The notes below the pieces were generated by a model. The model was not told the DNA's origin. It saw only the letters and a list, made by a program, of their open reading frames with translations, and did no database searches. A stretch of 64,000 bases of DNA from Gemmatimonadales bacterium. Lineage in GTDB: Bacteria > Gemmatimonadota > Gemmatimonadetes > Gemmatimonadales > GWC2-71-9. Below, piece by piece: positions 626-59,080 of the stretch. Every line of letters starts with the position of its first letter. Within the stretch, counting starts at the first letter, position 1. The DNA lies in the NCBI GenBank assembly GCA_036555275.1, contig DATBLR010000092.1:242-64241 (forward strand). Direction: 5' to 3'. The translations under genes and the position numbers were made by a program.

Positions 626-1664
626 GATCGCCTCCAGCCTGCGGGCCCTGGTCTCGGTCCGGCTGCGCGAGTTCTTCCGCGAGCCGGAAGCGGTGTTCTG
701 GACTTATGTGTTCCCGGTCCTGCTCGCCGGCGGTCTGGGTATCGCCTTCCGCAGTCAGCCCCCCCAGCCGGTTCGGGTGGGTTGGGCCGAATGGGTGGAC
801 GGCGACCCGCGGTCGCGCGCCGCGCTCGCCGGAGACAGCGGGATCGTCCTGGTGCCCCTTCCCGACTCCGCCGCTGCCGCGGTGGCGCTGCGACAGGGTC
901 GGGTCGCCCTGGTCCTCCTCGCTCGCCACGACGGAATTCACTATCGCTTCGACGACACCCGGGCCGACGCGCCGGCTGCCCGACTCAGGGTCGACGAGGT
1001 CCTGCAGCGCGCCGCAGGGCGTGTCGACCCGCTCCCGGTCTGGAACGAGCTGGTCCGGGAGCGGGGATCGCGGTACATCGATTTCCTCCTCCCCGGCCTT
1101 ATCGGCCTGAACCTCATGGGAAGCGGAGTGTGGGGTACCGGCTACTCCATCGTGGACGCGCGGCGCCGGAAGCTGCTGAAGCGGCTGCTGGCAACCCCCA
1201 TGTCCCGGGCCGAGTACCTGCTGTCCTTCCCCCTGGCCCAGCTGCTGCTTCTCTTCATCGAGGTGGGTACGATCCTCGCCTTCGGCGTGTTCGTGTTCGG
1301 CGTGCCGGTTCGGGGCTCCCTGGGCACCGTTGCCCTGGTTTGTGTCGTCGGGTCGCTGACCTTCGGGGCGCTCGGCCTGCTTGCCGCCGCCCGTCCCACT
1401 ACCATCGAAGGCGCGTCGGGCGTGATGAACCTTCTGCTGATGCCGATGTGGGTGGTCTCGGGAGTGTTCTTCTCATCGGAGCGATTCCCCCAGGCCGTGC
1501 AACCGGTGATCAAGGCCCTGCCGCTCACCGCGCTGGTAGACGCCCTCCGCCGCATCGTGCTGGAGGGAGCGGCGCTCGGATCGGTCGTGGGTCAGCTGGC
1601 CGTGCTGGCGGGCTGGCTGGTGGTATCCTTCCTGGTGGCGCTCCGGATCTTTCGCTGGCAATAG
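618..1664 (+). CDS. ABC-2 type transporter permease
   Basis: ATG 618 overlaps the upstream stop; multiple TM helices; SRYIDFLLPG and LKRLLATPM motifs. Confidence 0.9.
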   Translation: MAEIASSLRALVSVRLREFFREPEAVFWTYVFPVLLAGGLGIAFRSQPPQPVRVGWAEWVDGDPRSRAALAGDSGIVLVPLPDSAAAAVALRQGRVALVLLARHDGIHYRFDDTRADAPAARLRVDEVLQRAAGRVDPLPVWNELVRERGSRYIDFLLPGLIGLNLMGSGVWGTGYSIVDARRRKLLKRLLATPMSRAEYLLSFPLAQLLLLFIEVGTILAFGVFVFGVPVRGSLGTVALVCVVGSLTFGALGLLAAARPTTIEGASGVMNLLLMPMWVVSGVFFSSERFPQAVQPVIKALPLTALVDALRRIVLEGAALGSVVGQLAVLAGWLVVSFLVALRIFRWQ

Positions 1665-1720
1665 CCTCACCCCCTAGCCCCCTCTCCAGCTCCGCGGGAG
1701 AGGGGGTTAGGGGGTGAGGC
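1664..1720. repeat. REP-like palindrome (24-bp stem, 9-nt loop) between convergent genes; likely bidirectional terminator
   Basis: gcctcacccccta(g)ccccctctcc / ggagagggggttagggggtgaggc, one G-T wobble. Confidence 0.85.
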
Positions 1721-2845
1721 AAACCGATCCGGCCGGAACGGCTTGAGATCGAACGCCGGCACTTCTCCCATCGCCATGTCGCTCAGGATCTCGCCGATCA
1801 CACTGGCGAACTTGAAGCCGTGCCCCGAGCATGCGCTCGCCAGGAGGACTCGCGGTTCGCCGGGGAGCGCGCCCAGCACGAAGTGGTGATCAGGGGTGTT
1901 GGTGTAGAGACAGGTCGCCGCGTCGATCGGCTGGCCGCCGGCATCGGGGATGCGGGTTCGGAGCAGGGTTCGCATGGCGGCGATTTCCACCGGGCCCACC
2001 GTGCGATCGACCCGATCGGGGGATGCCACCGCCCCATCGTGGTGCCGCGCGACCTTGAGTCCCGCCCCGTGGTCGGGGATGCCGTAGAACAGCCGGTCAC
2101 GTTCCCATTCCCAGATGAAGACCGGCAAACGATCGGCGAGAAACATCTCCGGATTGTGCTCGGGTTTGAACCAGTACATCACCTGGCGCTCGACCTCCAG
2201 GGGGATCACCGAATCGGAGATCAGGCCCGGCAACCAGGGGCCGGCGGACAGGATCGCGGTGCCGCATTCGACCGCGCCGCGGCTGGTGGCGAGGGCTAGT
2301 CCGGCGCCACTCCGCCGCCAGCTGGTCACCTCGGTATCGAGATCGAGCACCGCTCCAGCCCGTACGGCGAGCTGGAGTGCGCTGGACACGCAGACCTCCG
2401 GATCCAGAAACCCGGCCCGGGGCTCCAGCAGACCCATCTCGCCGGGATCCGGCCGCAAGGCGGGAAACCGGCGGCGGATCTCCGCCGCACCCAGCAGCTC
2501 GAAGGGCAGGCCGTGGGCCCTCGCGCTCCGCTCAGAACCGGTCAGCAGCTGTCCATCCGGCCGCCCGATCATGAGCCCGCCGGTCTGCCACAGCAGGCGT
2601 TGCCCGCTATCCCGTTGCAGCGCTTCCCAGAGCTGGTAAGCTCGCCGCACCAGTGGCACGTACACCGGCGATTCGTAGTAGGCCTCCCGGATGACCCGGG
2701 AGCGGCCGTGGGTGGACCCGAACTGGTGGGGTGGGGAGTAGCGATCGAAACCGATGACCTGGATGCCGCGGCGCGCCAGTGCGAGGATCGCCGCGCTCCC
2801 TGCCGCACCCAGACCGACGACGGCGACGTCGGCGCGGCGGGACAC
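1667..2845 (-). CDS. solA: N-methyl-L-tryptophan oxidase / monomeric sarcosine oxidase family flavoprotein
   Basis: GTG start; VVGLGAAG FAD motif, GSTHGRSRVIR, CLYTNTPD (covalent-FAD Cys), CSGHGFKF. Confidence 0.88.
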   Translation of the reverse strand: MSRRADVAVVGLGAAGSAAILALARRGIQVIGFDRYSPPHQFGSTHGRSRVIREAYYESPVYVPLVRRAYQLWEALQRDSGQRLLWQTGGLMIGRPDGQLLTGSERSARAHGLPFELLGAAEIRRRFPALRPDPGEMGLLEPRAGFLDPEVCVSSALQLAVRAGAVLDLDTEVTSWRRSGAGLALATSRGAVECGTAILSAGPWLPGLISDSVIPLEVERQVMYWFKPEHNPEMFLADRLPVFIWEWERDRLFYGIPDHGAGLKVARHHDGAVASPDRVDRTVGPVEIAAMRTLLRTRIPDAGGQPIDAATCLYTNTPDHHFVLGALPGEPRVLLASACSGHGFKFASVIGEILSDMAMGEVPAFDLKPFRPDRFASPPNPLSRGAGEGARG

Positions 2846-2846
2846 C

Positions 2847-3179
2847 CTATCGACCGGGGAGGCGATGGCGGGCGAGCAGGAAGCGCTGTTCCTCCATGAT
2901 GACGCGCAGCGGGATGCCTTCATCCAGCCGGGCGGCCACCTCGCCGTCATGGACCCGCAGCACCGTGCCCCGGATGTCGAGGCTGTCGCCCCCCTTGAAG
3001 CGAACCTCGCCCTGGACCTCGAAGCCCGGCTCGGGCGCGGCCAAGTCTCCCAGTCGGAACCGGATGCCGCGCTCGCTGATGTCGAGAACTTCGAAGGCAA
3101 CACCCTGGACCACGAGCTTAGGGCGCAGAGCGGTTGGATAGGCGACCCGGTAGTGCTCGCGCTGGTGTATCCACCCCAT
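2847..3179 (-). CDS. PilZ domain protein
   Basis: REHYR (RxxxR) and DISERG (DxSxxG) c-di-GMP motifs. Confidence 0.85.
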   Translation of the reverse strand: MGWIHQREHYRVAYPTALRPKLVVQGVAFEVLDISERGIRFRLGDLAAPEPGFEVQGEVRFKGGDSLDIRGTVLRVHDGEVAARLDEGIPLRVIMEEQRFLLARHRLPGR

Positions 3180-13427: not shown

Positions 13428-14404
13428 CGGGTCAGACCGGTTGCGGACCAGCGGGCCTCGAGCACGGTAGCACCGATCCGTCGCGCCGCTTCCCGCCCCG
13501 TGCTTCCATCTCGCATCAGGAAGAACATCGAGCCGCCCGCCCCCGCGCCGGCGGCCTTCCCTCCCAGCGCGCCTGCTTCCGCCATGGCCGATTCCAGCGC
13601 GGCCATCTCCGCAGTTCGCATGCTGAGGTCGAGCCGCTGCTGACAACCCCAGTTGGCGGTGAGTAGCCGGCCGACCTGAGCGAGGTCCCCCGCGACAAGA
13701 GCACCGGCCATCCGGTCGGCGATGGCAGCCATCTCGGAGAGCGCCATGCACACCATGGTGTCCCTTCGTTCGTAGGCCTCCATGACCCGAGCGATGGTGT
13801 CGCCGGAAACCCGCGACCGCCCGGTGTAACAGACCACCGTCCGGCGCTCCAGCTCACTCACAAACGCGGAGTCGAGACTCAGGCGCTCCACGGTCACCTG
13901 GTCTCCCCGGAAGCGGAAGCGGTGAAAGCCGCCCAGCGCCGCGGCGTATTGATCCTGCCGCCCACCCGGAATGCCGGCCTCCTCGATTTCGAGTTGACAG
14001 CCGTGGGCGGCGATTTCCTCGAGGCCCAGCTCCTCGCCCCGCACCGCGGTGAGGGTGCCGACCAGCGCCACATCCAGCGCCCCCGAGCTGCCGAGCCCTG
14101 ACCCGGGCGGGACGTCCGATCGGGTGCGCAGCGTCCCCGGTCCGGTCGGAAACATTCGGAGCGCGGCCTTGTGGAGCTGCAACGCGCCATCGGACATCAG
14201 GTCCGCCGCCCGCGTCACCCTGGCGGAGGCCTTGAGATCTTCCGCGACCAGCAGAAGGCCGTTCCCTCCCGGTTCGAACTCCGCCTGGACCCGGAGATCG
14301 ATCGCGGCATTGACCACCTCGCCACCTTCCCGGGTCGCGAAGGGAGGGACGTCGGTCCACCCGCCGGCAAAGTCGAGCCGGACCGGCGCCGACATCCGGA
14401 TCAT
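13421..14404 (-). CDS. GHMP sugar kinase (HddA / fucokinase / glucuronokinase-like)
   Basis: APVRLDFAGGWTD, PPGSGLGSS, GRQDQY, GAGAGG. Confidence 0.88.
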   Translation of the reverse strand: MIRMSAPVRLDFAGGWTDVPPFATREGGEVVNAAIDLRVQAEFEPGGNGLLLVAEDLKASARVTRAADLMSDGALQLHKAALRMFPTGPGTLRTRSDVPPGSGLGSSGALDVALVGTLTAVRGEELGLEEIAAHGCQLEIEEAGIPGGRQDQYAAALGGFHRFRFRGDQVTVERLSLDSAFVSELERRTVVCYTGRSRVSGDTIARVMEAYERRDTMVCMALSEMAAIADRMAGALVAGDLAQVGRLLTANWGCQQRLDLSMRTAEMAALESAMAEAGALGGKAAGAGAGGSMFFLMRDGSTGREAARRIGATVLEARWSATGLTRC

Positions 14405-15849
14405 CGAACGCTCCACTGCGCAACCGTGGCCAGCTCGCCCCGCAATCCGAGTTCCACCCCCCGCACTCTCCGGTTCACACCCTGGAGACCCTGCGCGTGA
14501 TAGAGGAACGCCACCGGCACGGAGTCCTGATAAAACCGCAACAACCGATCGGTGCCTTCGGGCACCGGGAGCCCCGACAGGACGGCGAGCGGTCGCAGAT
14601 AGCCGAGGTCGGGGTCCCCCGGCGTCCCCAGCACCGCGGCCTGGAAGTCGGGTCGGGTCGAATACACCCGGTCCAGAAACGCCGACAGCTCGAGCTGCCT
14701 GATAACGACGGTGATCCCGCCCCGCGCCAGTTGGGCCTGGAGCATCTGCTCCAGCGCCGCCTCCCCGCTCCCGACGGTCACCAGCTCGAAGCGCAACGGG
14801 GCCTCTTGAGAGTGCCCAGTGCCGAGTGCCCGATCGGTGAAATCCGGCTTATCGGGCACTGGGTACTGGGCACTGGGCACTGGCAGTTCCGGCGGCACCG
14901 GGCCATCGGCCGGAGTGGCGAAACCGTACGCGAATCCATCGACCAAGGCGCGGCGATCGACGCCGTCGGCGACCCGCCGACGCTGCGCCAGCGCGTCGAA
15001 CGGAGGCCGGCGGGTGTTGAACACGATCCCGGTGGTGAACAGCACCGGGTACTCGCGGACCACGAGTGCGGGGTCCCGCTCCGCGAACGTCGCGTAGGCC
15101 GGTTGCAGGGCGGCGAAGTCGAGCTCGCCGGAGGTGAGTCCTGCCAGCTTGGTCATGGGCTCATCCACCACGGCGATGACCAGCCGCTCCAGAAGAGGCG
15201 GGCCGCCGAGGGCGGCGGGGAAGTCGCCGTTCCGCTCGAATACCCAGCGACGATTGGGATCGTGACGAATGAACCGGAAGGGCCCGTTACCGACCGGACG
15301 CTCATTCCATGCTGCTTGCCGCAGCCGGGCGGCCGGGATGCTGTCGAGCAGGTGGGCAGGCAGAATGGCAAGGTCGGTCAGCACGTCGGGCATCGTCCCG
15401 GTGGCCGCGCCAAAGTCGAGCACCAGGGTGGTATCGTCGGTGGCGGCTGCCCTGGCCAGGAGGCGAAGGTCCGTCTGTCGCGGATACCCGGTGCCGGGAT
15501 CGCGGGCCTGGGTCAGCGTCCAGGCGGCGTCCCGCGCGGTGGTGGGTGCGCCGTCCTCCCAGCGCAGGCCGGGATAGAGTATGAGGGTGAGGCGGCGACC
15601 TCCCTCCGACCAGGACCAGTGCCGCGCCAGGTACGGCGCAATGCGCATGGCGCTGTCACGGCGTACCAGGGTCGTAAGCAGCACGTAGCGCTGGACCTGC
15701 CGGGCGAGCGGGTGGATCGTGAACAGCGGATTGATGCTCTGGAGATCCGCACCGGAGGCGTACAGCACCGTGTTGCCCCGCCGGCGGGCATCGGTCCCGC
15801 AGGCGGCGAGCAGACCGGCGAGGAGGAGCGTCGCGGCACGGCGGAGCAT
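14401..15849 (-). CDS. peptide/oligosaccharide ABC transporter substrate-binding lipoprotein (family 5)
   Basis: lipobox LLAAC; APYLA..W, PVGNGPF motifs. Confidence 0.88.
   Translation of the reverse strand: MLRRAATLLLAGLLAACGTDARRRGNTVLYASGADLQSINPLFTIHPLARQVQRYVLLTTLVRRDSAMRIAPYLARHWSWSEGGRRLTLILYPGLRWEDGAPTTARDAAWTLTQARDPGTGYPRQTDLRLLARAAATDDTTLVLDFGAATGTMPDVLTDLAILPAHLLDSIPAARLRQAAWNERPVGNGPFRFIRHDPNRRWVFERNGDFPAALGGPPLLERLVIAVVDEPMTKLAGLTSGELDFAALQPAYATFAERDPALVVREYPVLFTTGIVFNTRRPPFDALAQRRRVADGVDRRALVDGFAYGFATPADGPVPPELPVPSAQYPVPDKPDFTDRALGTGHSQEAPLRFELVTVGSGEAALEQMLQAQLARGGITVVIRQLELSAFLDRVYSTRPDFQAAVLGTPGDPDLGYLRPLAVLSGLPVPEGTDRLLRFYQDSVPVAFLYHAQGLQGVNRRVRGVELGLRGELATVAQWSVR
14811..14881. 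repeat. intragenic inverted heptamer repeat (AGTGCCC x3 / GGGCACT x4)
   Basis: 24-nt arms 14811-14834 and 14851-14874, 22/24 complementary, in frame within the SBP. Confidence 0.85.
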
Positions 15850-18773: not shown

Positions 18774-18980
18774 GAGAACGGGGAACGCGAAACTGCGGGG
18801 AACGGGGAACAGGGAACAGGGAACGGGAAGAACAAGGCCGTTCAAGCGCATCGCCCACCAGAGGGACCAGAGTCGGTCCGGTTGCTTGTGCTCGGGAGTC
18901 AAACACGTTGCCTACCACGATACAGCCGAGTCAATCCCGTTCCCCGTTCCCTGTTCCCTGTTCCCCGGTTCCTGTTCCCC
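18774..18980. repeat. inverted tandem heptamer arms (GGGAACR / YGTTCCC) around a ~106-bp core
   Basis: left arm 18774-18828, right arm 18935-18980; about 30/32 complementarity in the inner part. Confidence 0.9.
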
Positions 18981-19011
18981 TTGCCGCATCCTATCCCTAC
19001 GACGAAATCCC

Positions 19012-20616: not shown

Positions 20617-20648
20617 GGCTGTCAGCTGACAGCTGTCAGCTGACAGCC
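20617..20648. repeat. perfect 32-bp palindrome of heptamer units (GCTGACA/TGTCAGC)
   Basis: ggctgtcagctgacagctgtcagctgacagcc equals its own reverse complement. Confidence 0.9.
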
Positions 20649-20665
20649 ATGAGCAGCCACCGCCC

Positions 20666-25038: not shown

Positions 25039-25150
25039 TAGCTATCGGCTATCGGCTCCCGACCATTCCGACCCAGCGGTACCTCGCAGCCCGGTACTCA
25101 CTGGGCCGATAGCTGATCGGCTAACGGCTGATAGCTGATAGCTGATAGCC
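25039..25150. repeat. inverted heptamer element (TATCGGC / GCTGATA) between convergent genes
   Basis: tagctatcggctatcggc ... gccgata gctgatc ggctaacg gctgata gctgata gctgata. Confidence 0.8.
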
Positions 25151-25152
25151 GC

Positions 25153-32914: not shown

Positions 32915-32943
32915 TTGACGCTCGGTCGGAGTCGGCCTATTTT
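32915..32943 (+). promoter_or_regulatory. sigma70 promoter of the rho operon
   Basis: TTGACG-17 nt-TATTTT. Confidence 0.7.
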
Positions 32944-33138
32944 GCGACGCTAGCGGTACGTTTGCGACCTCCCCTGACCGTCCCTTCAGACACATAAGGC
33001 AATCGCAGGCTGGCTCTCCGGCCGATTGCTCAATTCCGACCCCGACTACATTTGCCCGCCCCAAACAAGGCTCGTCCGCCAGCAGACCGGCGGCCCACTC
33101 CCGAGCGGAGTGCGACGACTGAGCGGAGTACCACTCCC

Positions 33139-34386: not shown

Positions 34387-34436
34387 GGGCTCCCGACCGG
34401 GACAGGGGCGCCCCTCCAAAGGCCATCGCCGCCACC

Positions 34437-34877: not shown

Positions 34878-35914
34878 TCAGGCAGGGGTACCGGGAACGG
34901 GGCACGGGGAACGGCGGCGGAAGGGCCCGTTCCCTGTTCCCCATTCCCCGTTCCCTGATCGCTTTGCTCCTCGCCTGCGCCTCGCCCGAGCCTGGCGGCG
35001 AGTTGGTCCGCGTCACGATCCCCCCCGGTTCCGGTTTCCGGGCCGTCACCGACACACTCGCAGCTCACGGGCTCACCGGATCGCGGCTCTGGTTCCGCGT
35101 GCTCGCCCGAGTTCGGGGCATCGACCGGGCCGTCAAGGCCGGAGTCTATGATCTGCCCGCCGGAGCGGGCGCTTGGGTGGTGCTGGATCAGTTGCAGCAA
35201 GGCAAAGTGGCGATGGCCCGGTTGACCGTGCCGGAGGGGCTTACCCTGGTCGAGCTGGCCAGCCTGGCAGACGCACGACTCGATATCCCGGCGGACAGCG
35301 TGCTCGCCCAGGCGCGCGATTCCGGCCGCCTGCGCCAGCTGGCTGTGGCGGCCCCAACCCTGGAAGGTTATCTGCTCCCGGAGACCTACAATCTCCCCCT
35401 TCCGGTGACCGCCGATGGCCTGGTGCAGGCCATGGCCGATGAGTTCACCCGCCGCTGGAATCCCGCCTGGGACCGCCGCCTGGATTCGCTGCACATGACG
35501 CGCGCCGAGCTGATCACGCTCGCCTCCATCGTTGAGGGCGAGGCCCGGCACGACGATGAGCGGGCGACAATCGCCGGCGTCTATACCAACCGCCTTCGGA
35601 GGGGCATGCTGCTGCAGGCCGACCCGACGGTTCAGTACGCCGTGCAGGTCGCCAGGGGAGAGCGCAAGCCGCGGCTGTTCTTCAAGGACCTGGAGATCGA
35701 TTCCCCCTATAACACCTACGTGCATGCCGGCCTGCCGCCGGGTCCGGTGAACTCACCCGGGCTCAAGAGCATCCAGGCGGCGCTGTACCCGACCGACGTT
35801 CCCTATCTGTATTTCGTCGCCGGGCCTGATGGGCATCACGTATTCAGCCGCACTCTCGCCGAGCACAACCACGCGATCATGCAGGTGCGGCGGCTCGCCG
35901 GCTCGGCGCCCTAG
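34874..35914 (+). CDS. mltG: endolytic transglycosylase MltG
   Basis: TVPEG, LEGYLLPETY, LASIVEGE, LQADPTVQY, SPYNTY..GLPPGP. Confidence 0.95.
   Translation: MIRQGYRERGTGNGGGRARSLFPIPRSLIALLLACASPEPGGELVRVTIPPGSGFRAVTDTLAAHGLTGSRLWFRVLARVRGIDRAVKAGVYDLPAGAGAWVVLDQLQQGKVAMARLTVPEGLTLVELASLADARLDIPADSVLAQARDSGRLRQLAVAAPTLEGYLLPETYNLPLPVTADGLVQAMADEFTRRWNPAWDRRLDSLHMTRAELITLASIVEGEARHDDERATIAGVYTNRLRRGMLLQADPTVQYAVQVARGERKPRLFFKDLEIDSPYNTYVHAGLPPGPVNSPGLKSIQAALYPTDVPYLYFVAGPDGHHVFSRTLAEHNHAIMQVRRLAGSAP
34876..34960. repeat. inverted heptamer element (GGGAACG / CGTTCCC) inside the mltG 5' end
   Basis: gggtacc gggaacg gggcacg gggaacg ... cgttccc tgttccc cattccc cgttccc. Confidence 0.85.
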
Positions 35915-35923
35915 GGGCGGGCC

Positions 35924-36541: not shown

Positions 36542-36929
36542 GAACGATCCCAATCCGCTCCGGCTTCAGGGAATCCGCGGGGCCACGACGGTGGAAGCCA
36601 ACGACGCGCTGCAGATTCTGGAGGCCACCGACGAGCTGCTCCGCCGGCTGATCGAGGCGAACGACCTCACCCCGGACGATGTGGTGAGCGGTCTGTTCAC
36701 CATGACCAGTGACCTCAACGCCGCATTCCCTGCCCGGGCCGCCGAAATCTACGGCTGGAATATTGTCGCCCTGCTGCATTCGACCGAGATCCCCGTCCCC
36801 GGTTCCCTGCCGCGCTGTATCCGGCTCCTGGTGCATGCCTACACCCGCCGCACCCGCGAAGAAGTTCGCCACGTCTACCTGCGCGGGGCGACCGTGCTCA
36901 GGCCGGACCGGGCAGAAGGGACTGGATGA
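36540..36929 (+). CDS. aroH: chorismate mutase AroH type
   Basis: GIRGATTV, DLNAAFPARAA, SLPRCIR, HVYLRGA.VLRPD. Confidence 0.92.
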   Translation: MNDPNPLRLQGIRGATTVEANDALQILEATDELLRRLIEANDLTPDDVVSGLFTMTSDLNAAFPARAAEIYGWNIVALLHSTEIPVPGSLPRCIRLLVHAYTRRTREEVRHVYLRGATVLRPDRAEGTG

Positions 36930-37002
36930 CGGCAGAACGGAGGACGGCCGGCTCCCTACCAGCTCACCGTCTTACCGTCATGCCGTCCCTCCGACCTATG
37001 AC
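36926..37002. repeat. inverted 8-nt-period element (GACGG / CCGTC) bounded by ATGAC direct repeats
   Basis: gacggcag aacggag gacggccg ... accgtctt accgtcat gccgtccc tccgacct; atgac at 36926 and 36998. Confidence 0.7.
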
Positions 37003-38161: not shown

Positions 38162-38306
38162 CCGGGCCGCGGCGGAGTGGCCTAGATCCATGCCATCTCA
38201 CGGTTTACGACCCTGTTCCCGGTTGACACCCCCGCCATACCATACGACTTTGTAGCTGGCGATCCTGGTGGACATTCCCCGATCCGGAACGGGCTCGACG
38301 ACCTTC

Positions 38307-39170: not shown

Positions 39171-39252
39171 CCTCCTCGGCGCACTTGCTCCTCCCCCGAT
39201 AGTCGATAGGATGCGGCAAGCGGTATCGCAGCCCCGGAGGGCCCACCTCGTC

Positions 39253-39281
39253 CTGCCCCGGCCTGCTGATCCGGCTATAAT
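39253..39281 (+). promoter_or_regulatory. probable sigma70 promoter of the fdh operon
   Basis: CTGCCC-17 nt-TATAAT; GGAGG SD downstream. Confidence 0.5.
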
Positions 39282-39323
39282 TCGACTGAAACGGTCGCCT
39301 TTGTTGGAGGGGCGCACATCATC

Positions 39324-42272
39324 ATGTCATCGATCAAGCTGAACGGACGATCCCTGCCTTTCACCCCGGGCCAGACCATTCTCGATGTGGCCAGGGCGAA
39401 CGGGGTGGACATCCCCACGCTGTGTTGGTATCCCAAGCTGCCCACGGTCGCCAACTGCCGCATCTGCCTGGTCTCGGTCGAAGGACAGGGCAAGCTGCAG
39501 CCGGCCTGTTACACTCCGGCCGCCGAGGGCATGGTGGTGGAGTCGGAGTCCGAGGCGGCCTCGGCCAGTCGAAAGTCGGTCCTGGAATTTCTTCTGCAAC
39601 GCTATCCCGGCGAGCATCTGGCCAACGGTGGCCGGGCCGATGCCCGGAACGTGTTCGAGGAATACTGCGTCCGGTACGACGCCGAGCCACCGGTCGCCCG
39701 GACGCTGGAACTGCGCCACGGCGACGAGCGGCCGGGCGACTGGATGATCCAGCACGACATGAGCCTCTGCATCCTGTGTACGCGCTGCGTCCGGGCCTGC
39801 GAGGACATTCAGGTGGTCGGGGTGCTGGATGTTGCACAGCGAGGCGAGCACGCGGAGATCGTCGTCGGGGGCGACGGGGATCCCGACCACGCCGGCTGCA
39901 CCTGGTGCGGCGAGTGCGTCCGGGTCTGCCCCACGGGGGCGATCTTCGAGTTCATTCCCAAGCAGCGGTTCGGCGCCGACGCCATTCGCCACCCGGACAA
40001 GGTGGCCCATTCGGTCTGTCCCTACTGTGGCGTCGGCTGCCAGATCGACCTTCACGTGAAGGGGGACCGCCTGCTGCGGGTCACCAGCCCGTGGATTGAG
40101 GACTACAGTCCCAACCAGGGCTCAACCTGCGTGAAGGGCCGCTTCGGGTACGACTTCACCCAGCATCGCGACCGGCTCAAAGCCCCCCTCATCCGCAAGG
40201 GCTGGCAGCATGACGGTGAACGCTGGGAGTGGACCGGCGAATGGCCCCGGCACCGCGAGGGCCCCTGGCAGCTCATCGAGGATCTGGGCAAGAAGGACAA
40301 GCCCCGTCCGCCGCGTCGCCAGGTAGGCAAGCCGCCCCTCACCGGGGTCGCCGTCCCGCTGCTGGATGAGGACGACGTGCGCGACCGGGTGGCCACCCCG
40401 CCGGCCTGGTACAGCGCCTTCCGGGAAGGGACCTGGGAAGAGGCGATGAGCCTCGTGGCCCAGGAGCTTGCGCGTATCCGCGACACCCGCGGCCCGGGAG
40501 CGCTGGCGTCGTTGTCCTCCGCCAAGTGTACCAACGAGGAGAACTATCTCTTCATGCGGATGGTGCGGGGCGCGCTGCGTACCAACAACGTGGACCACTG
40601 CACCCGACTCTGCCACTCGAGCTCGGTGGCAGCGATGAGCCGGGCGATGAGCACCTCGGCGGCTTCGGGCTCGATGCGGGAGATCGAGGAAGCCTGCAAC
40701 GTCATCTTCATCTCGGGCGCCAACACCACAGAGACCCATCCGGTGTTCGGCGCGCTCATTAAGCGGGCGGTGAAGCGGGGGGCCAAGCTCATCGTGGCGG
40801 ACGTGCGACGGACCGAGCTGGCGGCGCTGGCCGATATCCACCTGCAGATGATGCCGGGCACCGACGTCGTGCTCTATAATGCGATGCTGCAGCACATCAT
40901 CGCCACGGGGTTGGAGGATCGCGCCTTCATCGCCAAGCGGATGCACGACTGGGACGAACTGAAAGCGGCCGTGCAACCCTACACCCCGGACATGGCAGCC
41001 AAGATCACCGGCGTGCCCGCCGCCACGATCCGCGCCGCCGCCGAGATGTACGCCAGGGGCCCCAACACCTCGACCCTGTGGGCCATGGGGCTCACCCAGC
41101 ACAACACCGGCACCGATATCGTCGCCAGCCTGCTCAACCTGATGCTCGCCTGCGGCATGATCGGCCGATGGGGCGCCGCGATGATCCCGATTCGCGGCCA
41201 GAATAACGTGCAGGGTGCCAGTGACGTGGGCGCGATTCCTTTCGCGTATACCGACTACCGCTCGGTCGAAGACCCGGCCGTCCGCGCCATCTTCGCCGAG
41301 GCCTGGGGCCTCCCGGAGAATCACCTGTCCCTCAAGCGGGGGATGATGGTGACCGAGATCGTGGCGGAGGGAAGTCCCATCCGCGGCATGTACATCATGG
41401 GCGAGAACCCGGTCCTCTCCGACCCCAACATTGCTCACGCCGAGCACTGGGTCCGGGGCCTGGAATTCCTCGCCGTGCAGGATCTCTTTCTCACCGAAAC
41501 GGCCCGGTGGGCGGATGTGGTGCTTCCCGGGTCCGCCTTCGCAGAGAAAGAGGGCACGGTGGTCAACACTGACCGCCATATCCAGCTCATGGAGCCCGCC
41601 CAGGCCCCTCAGGGCGAGGCGCGACTTGATCTCGACATCCTGATCGAGCTGAGCAACCGGCTCGGCCTTCCCTCGCCGTATCAGGGCGCGGGAGACGTCA
41701 TGGATGAGATCGCCCGCGTCACCCCGGTCTGGCGAGGGGTAAACTACGAACGGCTGCGCCGGCTGCGGTCCTTGCAGTACCCGGTGCCGGACGTCCACCA
41801 CCCGGGGACCACCTTCCTCTTCGAGGATGCCTTCCCGACGTCTGATGGCCGGGCGCGGTTCATTCCGGTGGAGTATCTGCCTCCGGATGAGCTGCCCAAC
41901 GAGGAGTTCCCTTTCGTGCTCAATACCGGCCGGCAGATGTACCACTGGCACACCGGCACCATGAGCCGCCGCTCGCGCGGACTCGACAGCCGTGAGCCAA
42001 CGCCCATCATGGAGGTCCACCCGGCGGACGCGATCGCTCTCGGCGTGGTCGATGGAGACCCGGTCCTGGTGACCAGCCGCCGCGGATCCGTCCGCATCAA
42101 TGTCCGCGTGTCTGAGCGTCAGGCCCGTGGGCAGGTGTTCATTCCCATGCACTTCCGCGAAGCGGCGGCGAATATCCTCACCAACCCTCAGCTCGATCCT
42201 TATGCCCGGATTGCCTCCTTCAAGGTGAGCGCGGTCCGGGTGGAGCCGGTGGCCGCGGGAGTGGAGGTCTGA
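39324..42272 (+). CDS. fdhF: formate dehydrogenase alpha subunit (Mo/W-bisPGD, Cys type) with N-terminal Fe-S domains
   Basis: IPTLC..CRIC..PAC, CILCTRC, CTWCGEC, CPYCGVGC..CVKG, DHCTRLCH, RGQNNVQG. Confidence 0.92.
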   Translation: MSSIKLNGRSLPFTPGQTILDVARANGVDIPTLCWYPKLPTVANCRICLVSVEGQGKLQPACYTPAAEGMVVESESEAASASRKSVLEFLLQRYPGEHLANGGRADARNVFEEYCVRYDAEPPVARTLELRHGDERPGDWMIQHDMSLCILCTRCVRACEDIQVVGVLDVAQRGEHAEIVVGGDGDPDHAGCTWCGECVRVCPTGAIFEFIPKQRFGADAIRHPDKVAHSVCPYCGVGCQIDLHVKGDRLLRVTSPWIEDYSPNQGSTCVKGRFGYDFTQHRDRLKAPLIRKGWQHDGERWEWTGEWPRHREGPWQLIEDLGKKDKPRPPRRQVGKPPLTGVAVPLLDEDDVRDRVATPPAWYSAFREGTWEEAMSLVAQELARIRDTRGPGALASLSSAKCTNEENYLFMRMVRGALRTNNVDHCTRLCHSSSVAAMSRAMSTSAASGSMREIEEACNVIFISGANTTETHPVFGALIKRAVKRGAKLIVADVRRTELAALADIHLQMMPGTDVVLYNAMLQHIIATGLEDRAFIAKRMHDWDELKAAVQPYTPDMAAKITGVPAATIRAAAEMYARGPNTSTLWAMGLTQHNTGTDIVASLLNLMLACGMIGRWGAAMIPIRGQNNVQGASDVGAIPFAYTDYRSVEDPAVRAIFAEAWGLPENHLSLKRGMMVTEIVAEGSPIRGMYIMGENPVLSDPNIAHAEHWVRGLEFLAVQDLFLTETARWADVVLPGSAFAEKEGTVVNTDRHIQLMEPAQAPQGEARLDLDILIELSNRLGLPSPYQGAGDVMDEIARVTPVWRGVNYERLRRLRSLQYPVPDVHHPGTTFLFEDAFPTSDGRARFIPVEYLPPDELPNEEFPFVLNTGRQMYHWHTGTMSRRSRGLDSREPTPIMEVHPADAIALGVVDGDPVLVTSRRGSVRINVRVSERQARGQVFIPMHFREAAANILTNPQLDPYARIASFKVSAVRVEPVAAGVEV

Positions 42273-44050
42273 GCGGCGCCGGCCGGTCTCCCGGTCGGCC
42301 CTTCCGGGACCTGCGAGACTTCCTCGCCGAACTCGAGCGCAGAGGCGACCTCCGCCGGATCACCGTGGAAGTGGACCCGGTGCTCGAGGTTTCAGAGCTG
42401 ACCCAACGGGTGATCCGCGAGGACGGCCCCGCCCTGCTGTTCGAGCGCCCCCGCAACAGTGCCATTCCCCTGGTGATGAACCTGCTCGGCGCCCGCCGCC
42501 GGGTCGAGCTGGCCCTCGGCGCCGAGCCCCGGGCCATCGGGGCCGAGCTGGTGCGCGCAATCGAGCGGCTCAATCCCCCTTCCATCGGAGCGCTGTGGGC
42601 GTCCCGGAGGTTCCTGGCACGGGGACGCTTCCTGCACCCCAAGGAGGTCCGCCGGGCACCGGTGCAGCAGGTGGTCGAGCCGCCGGCCATCGACCGGCTG
42701 CCCAATCTGATGAGCTGGCCCCGGGACGGCGGCCGCTTCATTACCTTCGGGCCGACTCTCACCTGCGATCCGGTCACCGGCCGCCGCAACTTCGGACTGT
42801 ATCGGCTCCAGGTCTTCGGGCCGGCCGAGACCGGGATGCACTGGCAGAGCCTCAAGGGCGGTCGCGGGCATTACTTCGAAGCCGAGAAGCGAGGCCAGAA
42901 GCTCCCCGTGGCCGTGGTCCTGGGTGGCGATCCCGTCACCATGCTCTCCGCGATCCTGCCACTTCCGGAGGATGTCGACGAGCTGGCCTTCGCGGGCTAC
43001 CTCCGCGGCGCTCGCACCCGGCTGGTGCGGACCGTGGCGGGAGAGTTACTGGTCCCGGCCAATGCCGAGATCATCCTGGAGGGCTACGTGGCCCCCGGCG
43101 AGCGCCGGATGGAAGGGCCATTCGGAGACCACTTCGGGCACTATTCCGAAGCGAGCGAGTTTCCGGTCTTCCACGTGGAACGGGTCACCCGCCGGCGGGA
43201 TGCGCTGTACCCGGCCTCGGTAGTCGGCAAGCCGCCCCAGGAAGACAAGTTCATGGGGATCGCGGTGGGGGAGATGGTGGGTCCCCTGATCCGGCTGGTC
43301 AATCCCAACGTGGTCGATCTCTATGCCTACGACGCCGCGAGCTTCCACAACCTGCTCGCAGTGGCGGTGCGCGAGCGACATCCCAAGGAGGTGCTGAAGA
43401 CAGCGCTGGCGCTGCTGGGCACCGGGCAGCTCGCGCTCACCAAGGTGGCCATCATGGTCCGGGAGGGGGTCGACATCCGCAGCTTCGGCGCCCTGCTGCG
43501 CGAGCTGTGGTACCGCTTCGAGCCCCGCGACCGGATGATCCTGCTCCCCATAGGAACCCTGGATACGCTCGACTACACCTCCTTCACGATGCACGTTGGC
43601 AGCAAGCTCGTGCTCGATGCCACCGGGGACCCGGTGACGGACCGCCCACCCCCCGAGGCGGTCGGTAATCCCGCCGAGGCGGACCGCCGAGTCGCCGCCC
43701 ACCGGCTGCTCGAGGGTGGCTTCCTGGTGGTCTCGGTGGACCGTGACCCCCGGGCGGTGCTGCAGGAGCTACTCCGCTGGCCCGGCTTGGGGGAGGTTCG
43801 TCTGGTGACCGCAGTCAGCCGGGACGTGGACCTGCAGGATGAGACCAGCCTGCTGTGGGGGATCTTCACCCGATTCGATCCCGCGCGCGACATGATCTTC
43901 GCCCGGCAGGAGTTTCTCGGGGCCCGACCGGTCTATGGTGGCCCCATCGGCATTGACGCGACCTGGAAGGAAGGCTATCCGCAGCCGCTGGAGATGACCC
44001 AGGAGATCGTGCGCACGGTGGACAGGCGCTGGAAGGAGTACTGGAGTTGA
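42269..44050 (+). CDS. UbiD family decarboxylase (long, menaquinone-biosynthesis decarboxylase-like); probable CTG start
   Basis: conserved N-terminus FRDLRDFLAELE..GDL lies upstream of GTG 42365; NFGLYRLQ, EGPFGDH.GHY, GKPPQED, IDATWK. Confidence 0.9.
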   Translation: MSGAGRSPGRPFRDLRDFLAELERRGDLRRITVEVDPVLEVSELTQRVIREDGPALLFERPRNSAIPLVMNLLGARRRVELALGAEPRAIGAELVRAIERLNPPSIGALWASRRFLARGRFLHPKEVRRAPVQQVVEPPAIDRLPNLMSWPRDGGRFITFGPTLTCDPVTGRRNFGLYRLQVFGPAETGMHWQSLKGGRGHYFEAEKRGQKLPVAVVLGGDPVTMLSAILPLPEDVDELAFAGYLRGARTRLVRTVAGELLVPANAEIILEGYVAPGERRMEGPFGDHFGHYSEASEFPVFHVERVTRRRDALYPASVVGKPPQEDKFMGIAVGEMVGPLIRLVNPNVVDLYAYDAASFHNLLAVAVRERHPKEVLKTALALLGTGQLALTKVAIMVREGVDIRSFGALLRELWYRFEPRDRMILLPIGTLDTLDYTSFTMHVGSKLVLDATGDPVTDRPPPEAVGNPAEADRRVAAHRLLEGGFLVVSVDRDPRAVLQELLRWPGLGEVRLVTAVSRDVDLQDETSLLWGIFTRFDPARDMIFARQEFLGARPVYGGPIGIDATWKEGYPQPLEMTQEIVRTVDRRWKEYWS

Positions 44051-44060
44051 TAGCGCTACG

Positions 44061-44095
44061 CCCTGAAGGCCGCACCCTGAACGCTGAACCCTGAC
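44061..44095 (+). repeat. single-arm heptamer tandem (CCCTGAA)
   Basis: ccctgaa ggccgca ccctgaa cgctgaa ccctgac. Confidence 0.55.
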
Positions 44096-44101
44096 CCAGC
44101 C

Positions 44102-45151
44102 ATGCGCGCTCTCGTCAAGGTCGCACCAGGTGCCGGCATCGAAGTCCGCGAGGTGCCCCCGCCCTCCTACGGCCCAAGCGACGTTCTGATCAAGGTGCAC
44201 TACGCCGGGGTCTGCGGCACCGATCTCCACATCTGGGAGTGGGACGCCTGGGCGAGCGGCCGGCTCAAGCCACCGGTGATCGTCGGCCACGAGTTCGCCG
44301 GCGAGATCGTCGAACTGGGCCAGGAGGCCCGGTCGGAGGGGCTGCTGGCAGTGGGCGACCGGGTGACCGCCGAGGGTCATATCGTCTGCGGCCACTGTCT
44401 GCCCTGCCGCACCGGCGATGCCCATGTGTGCCGCCGGACCCGCATCATCGGAGTAGACCGCGATGGTGCCTTTGCCGATTTCATCGCAATGCCAGCTTCC
44501 AACGTAATGCAGCTGAGCGGCATCCCGACCGAGATCGGGGCAATCATGGATCCGACCGGCAACGCCGTGCACACCGTGCTGGAAGGGGGGAAGGTTCCCG
44601 GCAGCGCGGTGCTGGTGCTCGGATGCGGACCTATCGGTTGCTTCGCCGTCGGGGTCGCCCGGGCGGCAGGCGCCTCGCTGGTCATCGCCAGTGACCTCAA
44701 CCCTACCCGGCTCGATCTCGCCCGGAGAATGGGTGCCCACGCCACCCTCAACCCCACCACCGACGATGTGGTCGCCCGGTGTCGCGACCTGACGGGTGGC
44801 GATGGCGTGGACCTCGTGTGCGAGATGAGCGGGCATCCGGCGGGCCACCAGACCGCGTTCGGCGCGGCCCGCCTTGGGGGCCGGGTGAACTTCCTGGGCA
44901 CACCCAGTCAGCCTACCCAGGTGGATTTCGCCAGCGACGTGATCTTCAAGGGGCTGACCCTCTACGGCGTCACCGGCCGCCGCATGTATGACACTTGGCA
45001 GCAGATGTTCCGACTGCTCCGCGCCGGACAATTCGATCCCCGCCCGGTGGTGACTCACCGGTTCAAGCTGGACCAGATCGCGGAAGCGGTGCGCGTGATC
45101 AAGGACGGCTGTGCGGGCAAAGTCATCCTGGAGGTAAGCGGGGAGCGGTGA
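44102..45151 (+). CDS. tdh: L-threonine 3-dehydrogenase
   Basis: CGTDLHI, GHEF, EGHIVCGHC..C, GCGPIG; adjacent to kbl. Confidence 0.93.
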   Translation: MRALVKVAPGAGIEVREVPPPSYGPSDVLIKVHYAGVCGTDLHIWEWDAWASGRLKPPVIVGHEFAGEIVELGQEARSEGLLAVGDRVTAEGHIVCGHCLPCRTGDAHVCRRTRIIGVDRDGAFADFIAMPASNVMQLSGIPTEIGAIMDPTGNAVHTVLEGGKVPGSAVLVLGCGPIGCFAVGVARAAGASLVIASDLNPTRLDLARRMGAHATLNPTTDDVVARCRDLTGGDGVDLVCEMSGHPAGHQTAFGAARLGGRVNFLGTPSQPTQVDFASDVIFKGLTLYGVTGRRMYDTWQQMFRLLRAGQFDPRPVVTHRFKLDQIAEAVRVIKDGCAGKVILEVSGER

Positions 45152-45228
45152 GTGCGATGCGGGCCCGACGCCCTTCCTCCCGTTCCCCGTTCCCTGTTCT
45201 CCGTCCCCTCTTCCCCCGTTCCCCCTTA
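45134..45228. repeat. degenerate inverted heptamer element at the tdh-kbl junction
   Basis: gtaagcg gggagcg gtgagtg cgatgcg ... tcccgtt ccccgtt ccctgtt ctccgtc ccctctt. Confidence 0.7.
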
Positions 45229-45234
45229 TTCACC

Positions 45235-46437
45235 ATGTCCCTCATGTCCCTCGCCTCACGCCTGGATGCCGAGCTCGCCCAGTTCCGGAAAGACGGCGTC
45301 TACAAGGAGCTGCTGTACCTGGAGGGCCCGCAGGACGCCCGCGTCCGGATCGAAGGTCATGGCGAAGTCATTGTGCTTTCCTCCAACAACTACCTCGGGC
45401 TGTGCAACACGCCCGAGGTCGTCAGGGCGGGCACCGAGGCGCTGTCACGCTTCGGCGCCGGGACCGCATCGGTCCGGTTCATCTGCGGCACCTTCACCGT
45501 GCACCGGACCCTGGAGGCGGCCTGCGCCCGGCTGGTAGGGACTCCCGCCAGCCTGAGCTTCGTCAGCTGCTGGAACGCCAACGAGGCGCTGCCGGCCACG
45601 CTGCTCGGTGAAGAGGACATCGTCATCAGCGACCAGCTGAACCACGCATCGATCATCGACGCCATCCGCCTGGCCAAGGCGATCACCAAGTGCCAGACCG
45701 CGGTGTACCGCCACGCCGATCTGGCCGATCTCACGGAGAAGCTGAAGGCGGCACGCACCGGGCGGACCCGCATGGTCGTCACCGACGGAGTGTTTTCGAT
45801 GGAGGGGTCGATCGCCCGGCTGCCCGAAATCGCTGACCTCTGCCGCCGGTACGAGGCGGTGCTGGTCGTAGATGACAGTCACGCCACCGGAGTCCTGGGC
45901 CGGACCGGCCGCGGCACCGCCGAGCACTTCGACATGATGGGACAGGTGGACATCATCACCTCCACTCTGGGCAAGGCGCTCGGCGGGGCGGCGGGGGGCT
46001 TCGTGGCCGGCAGCGCTGCCGTATGCGACTACCTCACCCAGCGCGCCCGACCCCAGTTGTTCTCCAACGCCTTGCCCCCAACCGTGGCCGCCAGCGCGCT
46101 GGCCAGCGTGGAGTACCTCGAGCAGCACCCGGAGCGGGTTGAGACCCTGCGCCAGAATGCCCGCTACTTCCGCGAGCAGCTCCTGGCCACGGGCTTCCGC
46201 CCGCTGCCCGGTGAGACGCCCATCATCCCGGTGATCCTCGGCGAGACCGCCAAGGCGATCGAGATGAGCAAACAGCTGCTCCGGGAGGGCGTATTTGTGA
46301 CCGGATTCGGCTACCCGGTCGTCCCCCAAGGTCAGGCCCGAATCCGCTGCCAGATATCGGCGGCCCACACCCGGGAGGATCTGGACCAAGCCCTCCGAGC
46401 CATGCGAAAAGTCGCCGCGCGCCTCAGTCTGGTGTGA
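45235..46437 (+). CDS. kbl: glycine C-acetyltransferase (2-amino-3-ketobutyrate CoA ligase)
   Basis: SNNYLGL, SVRFICGT, LNHASIID, DDSHA, TLGKALGG; start could be 45244 or GTG 45148. Confidence 0.94.
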   Translation: MSLMSLASRLDAELAQFRKDGVYKELLYLEGPQDARVRIEGHGEVIVLSSNNYLGLCNTPEVVRAGTEALSRFGAGTASVRFICGTFTVHRTLEAACARLVGTPASLSFVSCWNANEALPATLLGEEDIVISDQLNHASIIDAIRLAKAITKCQTAVYRHADLADLTEKLKAARTGRTRMVVTDGVFSMEGSIARLPEIADLCRRYEAVLVVDDSHATGVLGRTGRGTAEHFDMMGQVDIITSTLGKALGGAAGGFVAGSAAVCDYLTQRARPQLFSNALPPTVAASALASVEYLEQHPERVETLRQNARYFREQLLATGFRPLPGETPIIPVILGETAKAIEMSKQLLREGVFVTGFGYPVVPQGQARIRCQISAAHTREDLDQALRAMRKVAARLSLV

Positions 46438-46450
46438 TATGGATCACACC
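46431..46450. promoter_or_regulatory. CRP/FNR-family-type binding site
   Basis: GGTGTGAT-atgg-ATCACACC, i.e. perfect TGTGA-N6-TCACA; TTGTGG-17-TAGTTT promoter at 46478-46506. Confidence 0.65.
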
Positions 46451-46577
46451 GCCGGTGTTTGTTCGGTATGAGCCTTCTTGTGGGATTGGCGGACTTCAAG
46501 TAGTTTGGAAGCTCAAAGCTCCAAGCAGAAGCAGCAAAAGCCCATAGCGCCACCCGAACATCCCTGGAGGCTTTCCG

Positions 46578-47225
46578 ATGCGCATGCTCGGCCGCACCGC
46601 CGTGGTGCTGGGGCTGGCTTGCCTGGTGCAGGTTCCAGCCGCCCACGCCCAGCTCACGGGGTTCGAGACCTTCAAGTGGTACGTCGGAGCCCACGGTGGC
46701 GTCGTCATCTTTGAGACCCCGTCTCAGACCCGCGGTGGAATCTTCGCCGCCGGTGGAGATCTCCTGGTCACTGCCAAGCGCACCGGCCTCCTGATCTCCG
46801 TGGAGGAGGGCATCGAGACCAACCAGCTCAGCTCCTTCACCGACTCGGCCGGCGCTACCCAGCAGGTCGTCTTCAACGATCTTCGGAAATACACCCTAGC
46901 CCTGCTGGCCTTCCCCCTCCGCACGATCGTTCAGCCCTACGTGGGGCTCGGCGTGGGATGGCTCCAGACAGTCAAGGAGTATCCGCAGGCTGGCGGCTCG
47001 CAGAGTCAGGCCGAGCGGGCAGGCTCGACCGGCTTCGGGACTCTCATCGGCGGGGTTCAGGCCCGCGTGAGCCGGTTCATCGTTTTCGGCCAGTATCAGC
47101 TCACCAGCGCCGCCGCCGCGAACAAGCTCTTTATTGGCCCGACCCACACCCTCACGGCCGGCATGAGGTTCAGCCTGGGGAACGCGCGGGAGGGCGTCGA
47201 GGGAAGAGGCTCGGGACCGGATTAA
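46578..47225 (+). CDS. outer-membrane beta-barrel protein (OmpA/OmpW-like, ~8 strands)
   Basis: SD ggagg; signal peptide AHA-Q; PYVGLGVG; alternating beta pattern ending AGMRFSLG. Confidence 0.8.
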   Translation: MRMLGRTAVVLGLACLVQVPAAHAQLTGFETFKWYVGAHGGVVIFETPSQTRGGIFAAGGDLLVTAKRTGLLISVEEGIETNQLSSFTDSAGATQQVVFNDLRKYTLALLAFPLRTIVQPYVGLGVGWLQTVKEYPQAGGSQSQAERAGSTGFGTLIGGVQARVSRFIVFGQYQLTSAAAANKLFIGPTHTLTAGMRFSLGNAREGVEGRGSGPD

Positions 47226-58215: not shown

Positions 58216-58220
58216 CGCCA

Positions 58221-59000
58221 GTGAGAGATCACGTCCACGTGCAGCTTCAGGCAGGGAAGTCGAATTCGACCATGGCGGCCGCCTCGGTGCCGGTCGGGGA
58301 GTCCATCCTCCGGCCGTCCGCGGAAGCCGTCGTGGTCTCGGAGCCTCGCGCACGATCGGAAACCCTCTCGCGGGTCCTCAACGTGACGCTCGCCGCGATG
58401 GCGCTCGCCGCACTGAGCCCCCTCATGGCCGTCATTGCGGCCCTGGTGAAGATCAGCTCACCGGGACCGATCTTCTATACCCAGACCAGAGTCGGCCTTG
58501 ATCGCCGACGCCGGCGGCCGCCGTCCCCGGACCTGGCCTACCGCCGCCAGGAGGATCTGGGCGGCCGGGTGTTCACCATCTACAAGTTCCGCACGATGTA
58601 TGTCAACGCGGAGCATCTGACCGGCGCAGTATGGGCCGCTCCGGAGGATCCCCGGGTGACGGCCATCGGTCGCCATCTGCGAAAGTACCGGCTGGACGAG
58701 CTCCCCCAGCTGCTCAACGTGCTGCTCGGCGACATGAACATCGTGGGCCCCAGGCCGGAGCGCCCGAGCATCTTTGCCAATCTGCGGCAGACGATCCCCG
58801 CGTACGAGCACCGCCAGCAGGTGAAGCCCGGTATCACCGGCCTCGCCCAGGTAAACCAGCAATACGACACCTCCCTCGACGATGTGCGGCAGAAGCTGCG
58901 GTACGACCTCGAGTATCTCGGCCGGCAGAGCCTGTGGGAGGACATCCTGATCATGCTCAAGACCATCCCGGTGATCCTGTTCAAGCGGGGCGGCTGGTAG
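58221..59000 (+). CDS. priming sugar transferase (Bac_transf)
   Basis: FTIYKFRTM, DPRVT.IG, LDELPQL, VGPRPER, KPGITGLAQ; start GTG 58221 or ATG 58272. Confidence 0.93.
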   Translation: MRDHVHVQLQAGKSNSTMAAASVPVGESILRPSAEAVVVSEPRARSETLSRVLNVTLAAMALAALSPLMAVIAALVKISSPGPIFYTQTRVGLDRRRRRPPSPDLAYRRQEDLGGRVFTIYKFRTMYVNAEHLTGAVWAAPEDPRVTAIGRHLRKYRLDELPQLLNVLLGDMNIVGPRPERPSIFANLRQTIPAYEHRQQVKPGITGLAQVNQQYDTSLDDVRQKLRYDLEYLGRQSLWEDILIMLKTIPVILFKRGGW

Positions 59001-59004
59001 CAGG

Positions 59005-59080
59005 GCCGGGAGAGCGGAAAGCGGCGAGAACGCAAAGAAGGCGAGGACGAGTCCTCGCCTTCCGGCTTTTTCTCCCCGGC
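59005..59080. terminator. bidirectional terminator-like hairpin within a 9-nt-periodic inverted element
   Basis: gaaggcgaggac-ga-gtcctcgccttc with T-rich tails both ways; outer gccgggaga / tctccccggc. Confidence 0.7.

Follow-up and report, generated by a model that had tools for sequence, protein, structure and literature searches.

The genome of a Gemmatimonadales bacterium (GenBank assembly GCA_036555275.1) carries, between and inside its genes, short DNA elements, most of them with complementary arms made of tandem units of 7-9 nucleotides (nt). About ten such elements lie in a single stretch of 64,000 nt (contig DATBLR010000092.1, positions 242 to 64,241; G000:C93:242-64241), here called the window, and they raise the question of what these elements are and how they spread. 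The original prediction had taken them for empty or minimal forms of a hairpin-bounded insertion system, tolerated in operons because the RNA stem loops it out. Our analysis suggests that, on balance, they are probably gene-less members of a selfish family of hairpin cassettes, spread by DNA recombination that the cassette protein promotes; it is likely that neither cut-and-paste transposition nor RNA excision is at work. The link to cassettes, the allele states in relatives and the in-frame reading of mltG and of a substrate-binding protein (SBP) gene have held from the original prediction, whereas a general frame rule, the loop-out and the emptied cassettes have not.

The assembly comprises 3.71 Mb with 67.5% G+C and is 97.5% complete, and the host population was matched in peat, wetland and soil metagenomes. 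Genes were called with a codon model of our own and named from NCBIfam. These names agree with solA, mltG, rlmI-like, tdh and kbl, the matches for the SBP and rlmI genes lying under the curated cut-offs. The closest relative in our comparisons has a MltG identity of 74%.

Paired periodic arms in the genome

Tandem arrays of period 7, 8 and 9 occur 490, 226 and 61 times in the genome, compared with 36, 5 and 5 times in a control genome generated by a fifth-order Markov model, and 415 of the 490 period-7 arrays are intergenic. The arrays make up 522 elements, of which 273 are paired. The control holds no pair at all, so that the frequency is not that of random sequence and the element family is confirmed. 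Each unit is present in one fixed arm polarity (73/73 for the commonest unit). The elements start at most 10 nt behind a stop codon in 63% of 270 cases, and 24 of the 273 paired elements are situated deep inside coding sequence. An uninterrupted helix of at least 11 bp is present in 223 of 269 elements. The share of elements at convergent junctions is slightly raised (11% vs 7% and 5%), and the stop codon is weakly in register with the unit (0.96 vs 0.76 matches of 3, n=156).

Two other identities were considered and rejected. As intrinsic terminators the elements are unconvincing, since at least five T in the next 10 nt are found at only 17 of 182, and none of three terminator-like sites at window positions 33000-47000 falls within an element. 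Loops as remnants of cargo genes gave no profile match, and DNA matches were at chance level. The elements had 0 matches in Rfam and no tRNA was found.

Cargo cassettes and their arms

The original prediction had linked similar arms to genes for small four-helix-bundle and GxxExxY proteins, and the host cassettes do lie between such arms. Profile searches of the host returned 8 matches to PF05635 and 1 to PF13366. Inverted arms enclose six of the eight PF05635 loci and the one PF13366 (GxxExxY) gene, the other two loci being cut by contig ends. Across the order, arms with a score of at least 30 flank 65/69 sampled four-helix loci with enough flank and 18/30 GxxExxY loci (shuffled flanks 7-8%). 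In other phyla they are present at 30 of the 40 loci with enough flank, against 4% in shuffled sequence (7 of 47 loci were dropped for short flanks). A further link, to DUF559 genes, applies to the palindrome at 1664 and was seen in relatives; no DUF559 gene was found in the host genome.

The cargo belongs to TIGR02436 (four-helix) or TIGR04256. The best structural match of the four-helix cargo is the solved homologue 2GSC, Xanthomonas XCC0516, and ratios of nonsynonymous to synonymous substitution (dN/dS) of 0.07-0.29 in 10 pairs indicate purifying selection on it. Four-helix genes are present in 37/41 genomes, and none was found in three genomes of 93-97% completeness. Wherever the flanks of a cassette could be matched they are protein genes; none of these cassettes is located in a 23S ribosomal RNA (rRNA) gene.

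Arm units and proteins go together. In a quick tree of the cassette proteins, with branch support from the Shimodaira-Hasegawa-like approximate likelihood ratio test (SH-aLRT), one clade of 33 rows has nearly all 8-9-nt units (SH-aLRT 99), another of 10 rows has one 7-nt family (99) and a third of 6 rows has GGGAAC-type arms (100).

Two further observations concern the cassettes. A direct repeat, TTGA-N7-TTGA, is present in 23 of 74 cassette leaders (for example L111, L116 and L120) and is possibly a regulator site; it precedes only 4 of 3582 host genes, none recognised as a competence gene from its N-terminus. At a contig end (G000:C29:8472-8669) a four-helix gene of another subfamily is followed by a purine-rich arm, the reverse of the usual polarity.

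Allele states at orthologous junctions

Empty, short and cargo-bearing alleles, with differing units, were all found at orthologous junctions of relatives, as the original prediction had expected. At 13 junctions that hold cargo in relatives, the host carries cargo at four, a short pair at four, a decayed array at one, no array at three and another gene at one. One junction has a GxxExxY gene in the host and four-helix genes in two relatives. The rex-arcA junction has received four-helix cassettes with five different units in both orientations; both cargo orientations were seen at 2 sites. Counting by eye, we found in-frame arms of differing units in the SBP loop of 7 of the 23 genus rows. Element carriers are scattered on the species tree and adjoin empty sisters.

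The window's own junctions have empty and short alleles but no cargo among 258 loci, either around window genes or sampled from relatives. A reading of the ten sites as emptied cassettes is thus not supported, and gene-less elements appear to have been copied on their own. Four gene-less copies, whose loci are unrelated, have inner arms and loop in common, three of them being 93-95% identical over 108 nt, and differ in their outer arms. This is the pattern that recombination within the arms would leave when it swaps interiors. In a sister pair that is 98% identical (codon positions 1-2, mltG core), three junctions have been replaced as whole blocks, flanking codons included.

Separately, at L001:1131-1383, 9 of 11 differences of one DNA run are clustered in the 5' part of arcA beside the cassette and 0 lie in the cassette, possibly a recombination tract.

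Reading frame and translation

Frame preservation, which the original prediction had extended to several elements, is no general property. Co-directional element junctions (n=141) comprise 42 of the coupled frame class and 61 and 38 of the others, with no bias towards the coupled class; the element spans modulo 3 are 45/53/43. A mild frame skew (p 0.04, uncorrected) favours a class other than the coupled one. Among ATGA/GTGA overlaps 18/50 are in frame. Units containing a stop codon are scarce in genes (1/24 vs 54/249, p 0.058).

The situation is different at mltG. An element is present in 19 of 38 alleles there, and in each of these 19 the frame is open from the start codon overlapping the stop of ruvX. 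The in-frame MltG N-termini (n=36) all end in a lipobox-like cysteine, which predicts removal of the inserted peptide by cleavage. In-frame reading was also found for the SBP loop, which has a hypervariable sequence and is predicted from the alignment to be a surface loop. It does not extend to the third claimed case, solA, where the element supplies 16 extra C-terminal codons and a stop, with no read-through. Open frames before rlmI and kbl are indeed present in the host (36926 and 45148), but the host allele is in each case the only open one (1/15 and 1/6 element alleles), and a 4-nt deletion at 36955 in a population DNA contig breaks the rlmI read-through. Frame is therefore kept only where selection demands it, i.e. 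where no other start exists, and this pattern suggests that the stem is translated through. In an additional gene, of 1110 codons (G000:C3:148406-151735), two GGGAAC-type elements lie in frame, and one of them measures about 350 nt.

How the elements may spread

A full cassette consists of a left arm (a 7-9-nt unit repeated n times), a leader, a small four-helix-bundle or GxxExxY gene and a mirror-image right arm. The arms may provide the homology for exchange of interiors between loci and between relatives, with the cassette protein recognising its own unit and promoting the exchange, and slippage together with arm-to-arm correction may keep the arms periodic. Natural transformation is a possible route because comEC is present in the genome. 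Surviving copies would be harmless where they sit, namely immediately after a stop codon, in a signal peptide with predicted cleavage or in a variable loop; in the latter two places only in-frame alleles would persist, probably translated straight through.

In agreement with a role of the cassette gene, element density rises with cassette number (rho 0.57, p 0.005, n=23; two genomes below 20 kb dropped, kinship not corrected), and 10 of 32 elements match the cassette unit of their own genome, compared with 2.7 expected. Signs of transposition are missing. Direct repeats of at least 5 nt, as target-site duplication would leave, flank 8.9% of elements against 9.4% of shuffled pairs (n=269; the element ends are fuzzy). 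The host genome gave 0 matches to Y1 transposase (PF01797) and none to reverse transcriptase (PF00078).

Several points weigh against recombinational copying driven by the cassette protein. The loops are mostly unique (9 similar pairs among 140), which means that copying is documented for one small subfamily only, and block replacement is known from one clear sister pair. The data hold no young pair of filled and empty sites. Only 44 of 273 host elements match an intact cassette of the host with at most one mismatch, and for the three commonest units the assembly contains no intact cognate cassette. Our enzyme searches covered only Y1 transposase and reverse transcriptase. The co-tracking of unit and protein could arise from linkage alone. 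The role given to the protein is conjectural, and the four-helix bundle is not known as a nuclease or recombinase. The loss of RNase III considered below is a single phylogenetic contrast, and four-helix genes are found in 4/15 RNase III-positive members of the phylum, most of them armed. Finally, 7-11% of the heptamer repeats of Xanthomonas are intragenic (PMC4692102, in the text available), close to the 24/273 seen here.

The main rival to recombinational copying is that the repeats are made by the host, with slippage building an array, template switching mirroring it and ectopic gene conversion homogenising the copies, the genes being inert passengers. We hold this explanation to be rather doubtful, although it would account easily for loops that are mostly unique and fast-decaying, for the similar numbers of single arms and pairs (273 of the 522 elements are paired) and for the many host elements without an intact cognate cassette; slippage is also cited for the heptamers by Rehm et al. 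(PMC4692102, available text). It leaves unexplained why unit polarity is fixed and common to cassettes, why unit families agree with the clades of the protein, in other phyla as well, and why density tracks cassette number, and the three genomes without a four-helix gene have 0 paired elements in 169 kb. A domesticated host system, in which the protein binds or cuts cognate repeats that are kept for use, either controlling incoming DNA or stabilising or terminating transcripts, appears improbable. Purifying selection on the gene, its presence in 37/41 genomes and the slight enrichment at convergent junctions (11% vs 7% and 5%) fit such a system, and SsnA with its hairpin repeats in Neisseria offers a precedent (PMC11893778, as far as its available text goes). 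However, sites turn over freely by gain, loss and exchange, the four-helix gene is missing from three genomes that are 93-97% complete, and U-tracts are scarce (17/182).

Least probable is the model of the original prediction, that the insertion is tolerated because its RNA stem is cut out or skipped, and that short elements are emptied cassettes. In its favour are the Coxiella intervening sequence, which has a protein of the same family and a heptamer-bearing terminal stem and is removed by RNase III (PMC4990558, available text), and the long helices found here (at least 11 bp uninterrupted in 223/269). However, no RNase III domain was found in the host genome by two Pfam models, tblastn and a motif scan. 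TIGR02191 matched only once in 41 genomes, on a 1.5-kb contig, leaving 40/41 relatives without it, and in a phylum sample it matched 0/183 genomes of eight families and 16/17 in four other families. Copying by recombination is likelier than RNA excision because RNase III was not found in the lineage. Skipping would also make the frame kept by the 19/19 mltG element alleles unnecessary; that constraint indicates that ribosomes read through. Further, cargo at 49 loci is antisense in an operon at 23, convergent at 19, sense at 6 and divergent at 1, i.e. antisense or convergent at 42/49, and sense cargo in an operon amounts to 6/49. In other phyla cargo is sense in 7 of 8 clear cases (21 unclear). 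Thin contigs from three metatranscriptome sets showed no skip: none of the joints listed at window positions 30000-47000 skips an element, and no skipping joint was found at the rex-arcA cassette, the RNA contigs being sparse in both places and unable to prove that skips are absent. One 190-nt contig of an RNA library, which may be DNA, spans cargo gene, arm and arcA uncut.

In the recombinational reading, the loss of RNase III likely lowers the cost of long mRNA stems in this lineage. The genus has 32 paired arrays in 1.00 Mb, whereas 392 kb from RNase III-positive members of the phylum contain 0. The four-helix genes in 4/15 of the positive genomes imply that the loss is at most permissive. 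The phylum count also raises the question of rRNA maturation in the families in which RNase III was not found.

The ten sites in the window

All ten sites of the original prediction are present where it placed them (Table 1). The architecture of periodic arms that it ascribed to most of them is shared by seven; the site at 44061 has one arm, that at 1664 is a palindrome and that at 59005 stays unclassified.

Table 1. Repeat elements in the window. Fold z-scores were computed against dinucleotide shuffles.
Position	Strand	Feature	Location	Fold z
1664..1720	.	57-nt non-periodic palindrome, DUF559-linked family	Convergent junction; supplies solA-like 3' end	-10.2
14811..14883	-	Paired 7-nt GGGCACT-type arms	Hypervariable loop of ATP-binding cassette (ABC) SBP gene; in frame	-8.3
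18774..18985	+	Paired GGGAAC-type 7-nt arms, 80-nt loop	Gap from oppC-like to glycerophosphodiesterase-like gene	-7.8
20617..20650	-	Loop-less self-complementary 7-nt array	Gap between Rid gene and metallo-beta-lactamase (MBL)-fold hydrolase gene	-6.6
25039..25152	.	Paired GGCTATC-type 7-nt arms	Fills convergent junction of Rieske oxygenase gene and 440-aa gene	-4.9
34878..34958	+	Paired GGGAAC-type arms	Directly 3' of ruvX stop, in predicted mltG signal-peptide region	-4.4
36926..36995	+	Degenerate 8-9-nt GACGG-type arms	aroH / rlmI-like gap; open frame from 36926 not conserved	-3.8
44061..44096	+	Single CCCTGAA-type arm without partner; does not fold	Before tdh	-0.8
45134..45234	+	Imperfect pair: short left arm, CCCGTTC-type right arm	tdh / kbl gap	-2.6
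59001..59107	.	Imperfect hairpin, no clear period; family membership unproven	Convergent junction	-2.7 (at 59005)

The solA-like gene (1667-2845, minus strand) takes its last 16 codons and stop from the palindrome. Its orthologues in the genus mostly end 0-6 codons past the matching residue, a few at 9-12. The palindrome has 2 copies in the genome and is 93% identical over 43 nt to a stretch beside the DUF559 gene of a relative; of the 5 strong DUF559 loci of the genus, 2 have the gene flanked by similar whole hairpins. The SBP gene spans 14401-15849 (minus strand), and the unit of its element equals that of the host four-helix cassette at G000:C112. The element at 18774 follows the oppC-like stop at 18765 and precedes the glycerophosphodiesterase-like start at 19012; in relatives this gap ranges from -4 to 599 nt and in some contains 8-nt arms. 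Relatives have different units, or no element, at the 25039 junction. Reading of the element in mltG (34874-35914) begins at the ATGA overlap (34874) and is in frame. The rlmI-like gene has an ATG of its own at 36998, as has kbl at 45235, and in many relatives tdh and kbl are directly coupled. The unit at 44061 equals that of the host rex-arcA four-helix cassette (G000:C10). No match of the 59005 site to cassette arms exceeded the random level.

Three smaller observations were made beside these sites. Two relatives have, between ubiD and tdh, a gene that we take from its sequence to be UbiA-like, where the host has the single arm (44051-44101), possibly a deletion scar. A 9-nt direct duplication at the kbl start (45234-45252) results in two in-frame ATGs. 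The MBL-fold hydrolase gene (19810-20601, minus strand) gave weak matches to class B beta-lactamase models, far under the cut-off.

Comparison with known systems

The comparisons made here extend to the available text of each cited paper. Inverted pairs of the heptamer GGGAATC are known from Xanthomonas, with related heptamers in Nostoc and convergent pairs in 70 and 75 cases (Rehm et al. 2015, PMC4692102). They are like the present elements in having 7-nt tandem units and convergent pairs, in being mostly intergenic and near the upstream gene and in varying between sister species. Their defining features, tandem 7-nt units above chance and convergent pairs near the upstream stop, are found here as well. 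However, they have one unit per genus, no cargo in the main text and an interpretation as G-quadruplexes, whereas our host has many units, and cargo. Some of the host units have no GGG run, which bears on the formation of G-quadruplexes.

In RAYT-REP systems (repetitive extragenic palindromes, REP, with their associated tyrosine transposase) a gene for a transposase enzyme is flanked by its own dispersed repeat, with whole hairpins on each side; unlike there, no Y1 transposase was found in the host. In the Ssn-SRM system, which is based on NTS/SRM hairpin repeats, a small gene is likewise flanked by its own genome-dispersed repeat, and protein-repeat pairs diverge together (Chenal et al. 2025, PMC11893778). 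However, that system has whole conserved hairpins on each side and a GIY-YIG nuclease, in contrast to two periodic arms with four-helix or GxxExxY cargo. The 1664/DUF559 class does fit the whole-hairpin layout of Ssn-type systems. Some of the same junctions in relatives (L302, L284 and L139) contain palindromes of a third family, which is similar to the SRM motif described in PMC11893778.

Terminal inverted repeats, stem-loops, empty and filled sites, in-frame fusions and terminal extensions are shared with MITEs (miniature inverted-repeat transposable elements) and in-frame repeat fusions (Delihas 2011, PMC3184786). The present elements differ in having no target-site duplication, mostly unique interiors and no cognate transposase among the families searched (Y1, reverse transcriptase). 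As to a conserved multi-copy interior, as in MITEs, four near-identical copies were seen beside otherwise unique loops. The intervening sequence of Coxiella 23S rRNA (S23p) resembles the present cassettes in having a four-helix-bundle gene in the loop of a terminal stem with tandem heptamers (PMC4990558); the present case differs by its mRNA junctions, purifying selection on the gene, hundreds of gene-less copies and the fact that no RNase III was found. The Avd protein of diversity-generating retroelements has a homologous fold (PMC10053308) and its model NF033474 matched the cargo weakly, but the score was 31.7 where the cut-off is 80, and the search of the genome for a reverse transcriptase was negative. 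In the way it works the system resembles Ssn-SRM or RAYT-REP, but it lacks a defining feature of each, and of MITEs and rRNA intervening sequences too.

Significance

A literature search that did not cover subscription journals returned no paper that connects these genes with periodic arms, nor any report of RNase III loss for the phylum, which Figure 2 of PMC3071783 may show. Only parts of the system are in print, namely the Xanthomonas heptamer pairs, the Coxiella rRNA intervening sequence and the Ssn nuclease-repeat pairs. Our analysis adds the test of reading frame, the four gene-less elements that were copied, the bias in cargo orientation and the count of RNase III across the phylum.

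The finding connects three questions: the over-represented 7-nt repeats of bacteria, the function of TIGR02436 and TIGR04256, both of them very large protein families that are still uncharacterised, and the source from which rRNA intervening sequences arose. Tentatively, we suggest a transposase-free selfish class spanning phyla, in which a pentameric Avd-like four-helix protein would read its own 7-9-nt code and drive the exchange of interiors between repeat-armed landing pads. Such a class might be the source of bacterial heptamer repeats, which have long lacked an explanation, and of rRNA intervening sequences, and after RNase III loss it might have reached hundreds of sites and repeatedly given conserved proteins new signal-peptide and loop sequence. 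A single genome yields defined protein-unit pairs that are directly testable, and a protein family with programmable specificity for short repeats would be of interest as a tool. For the organism itself, the missing RNase III alters the reading of every long hairpin in the lineage.

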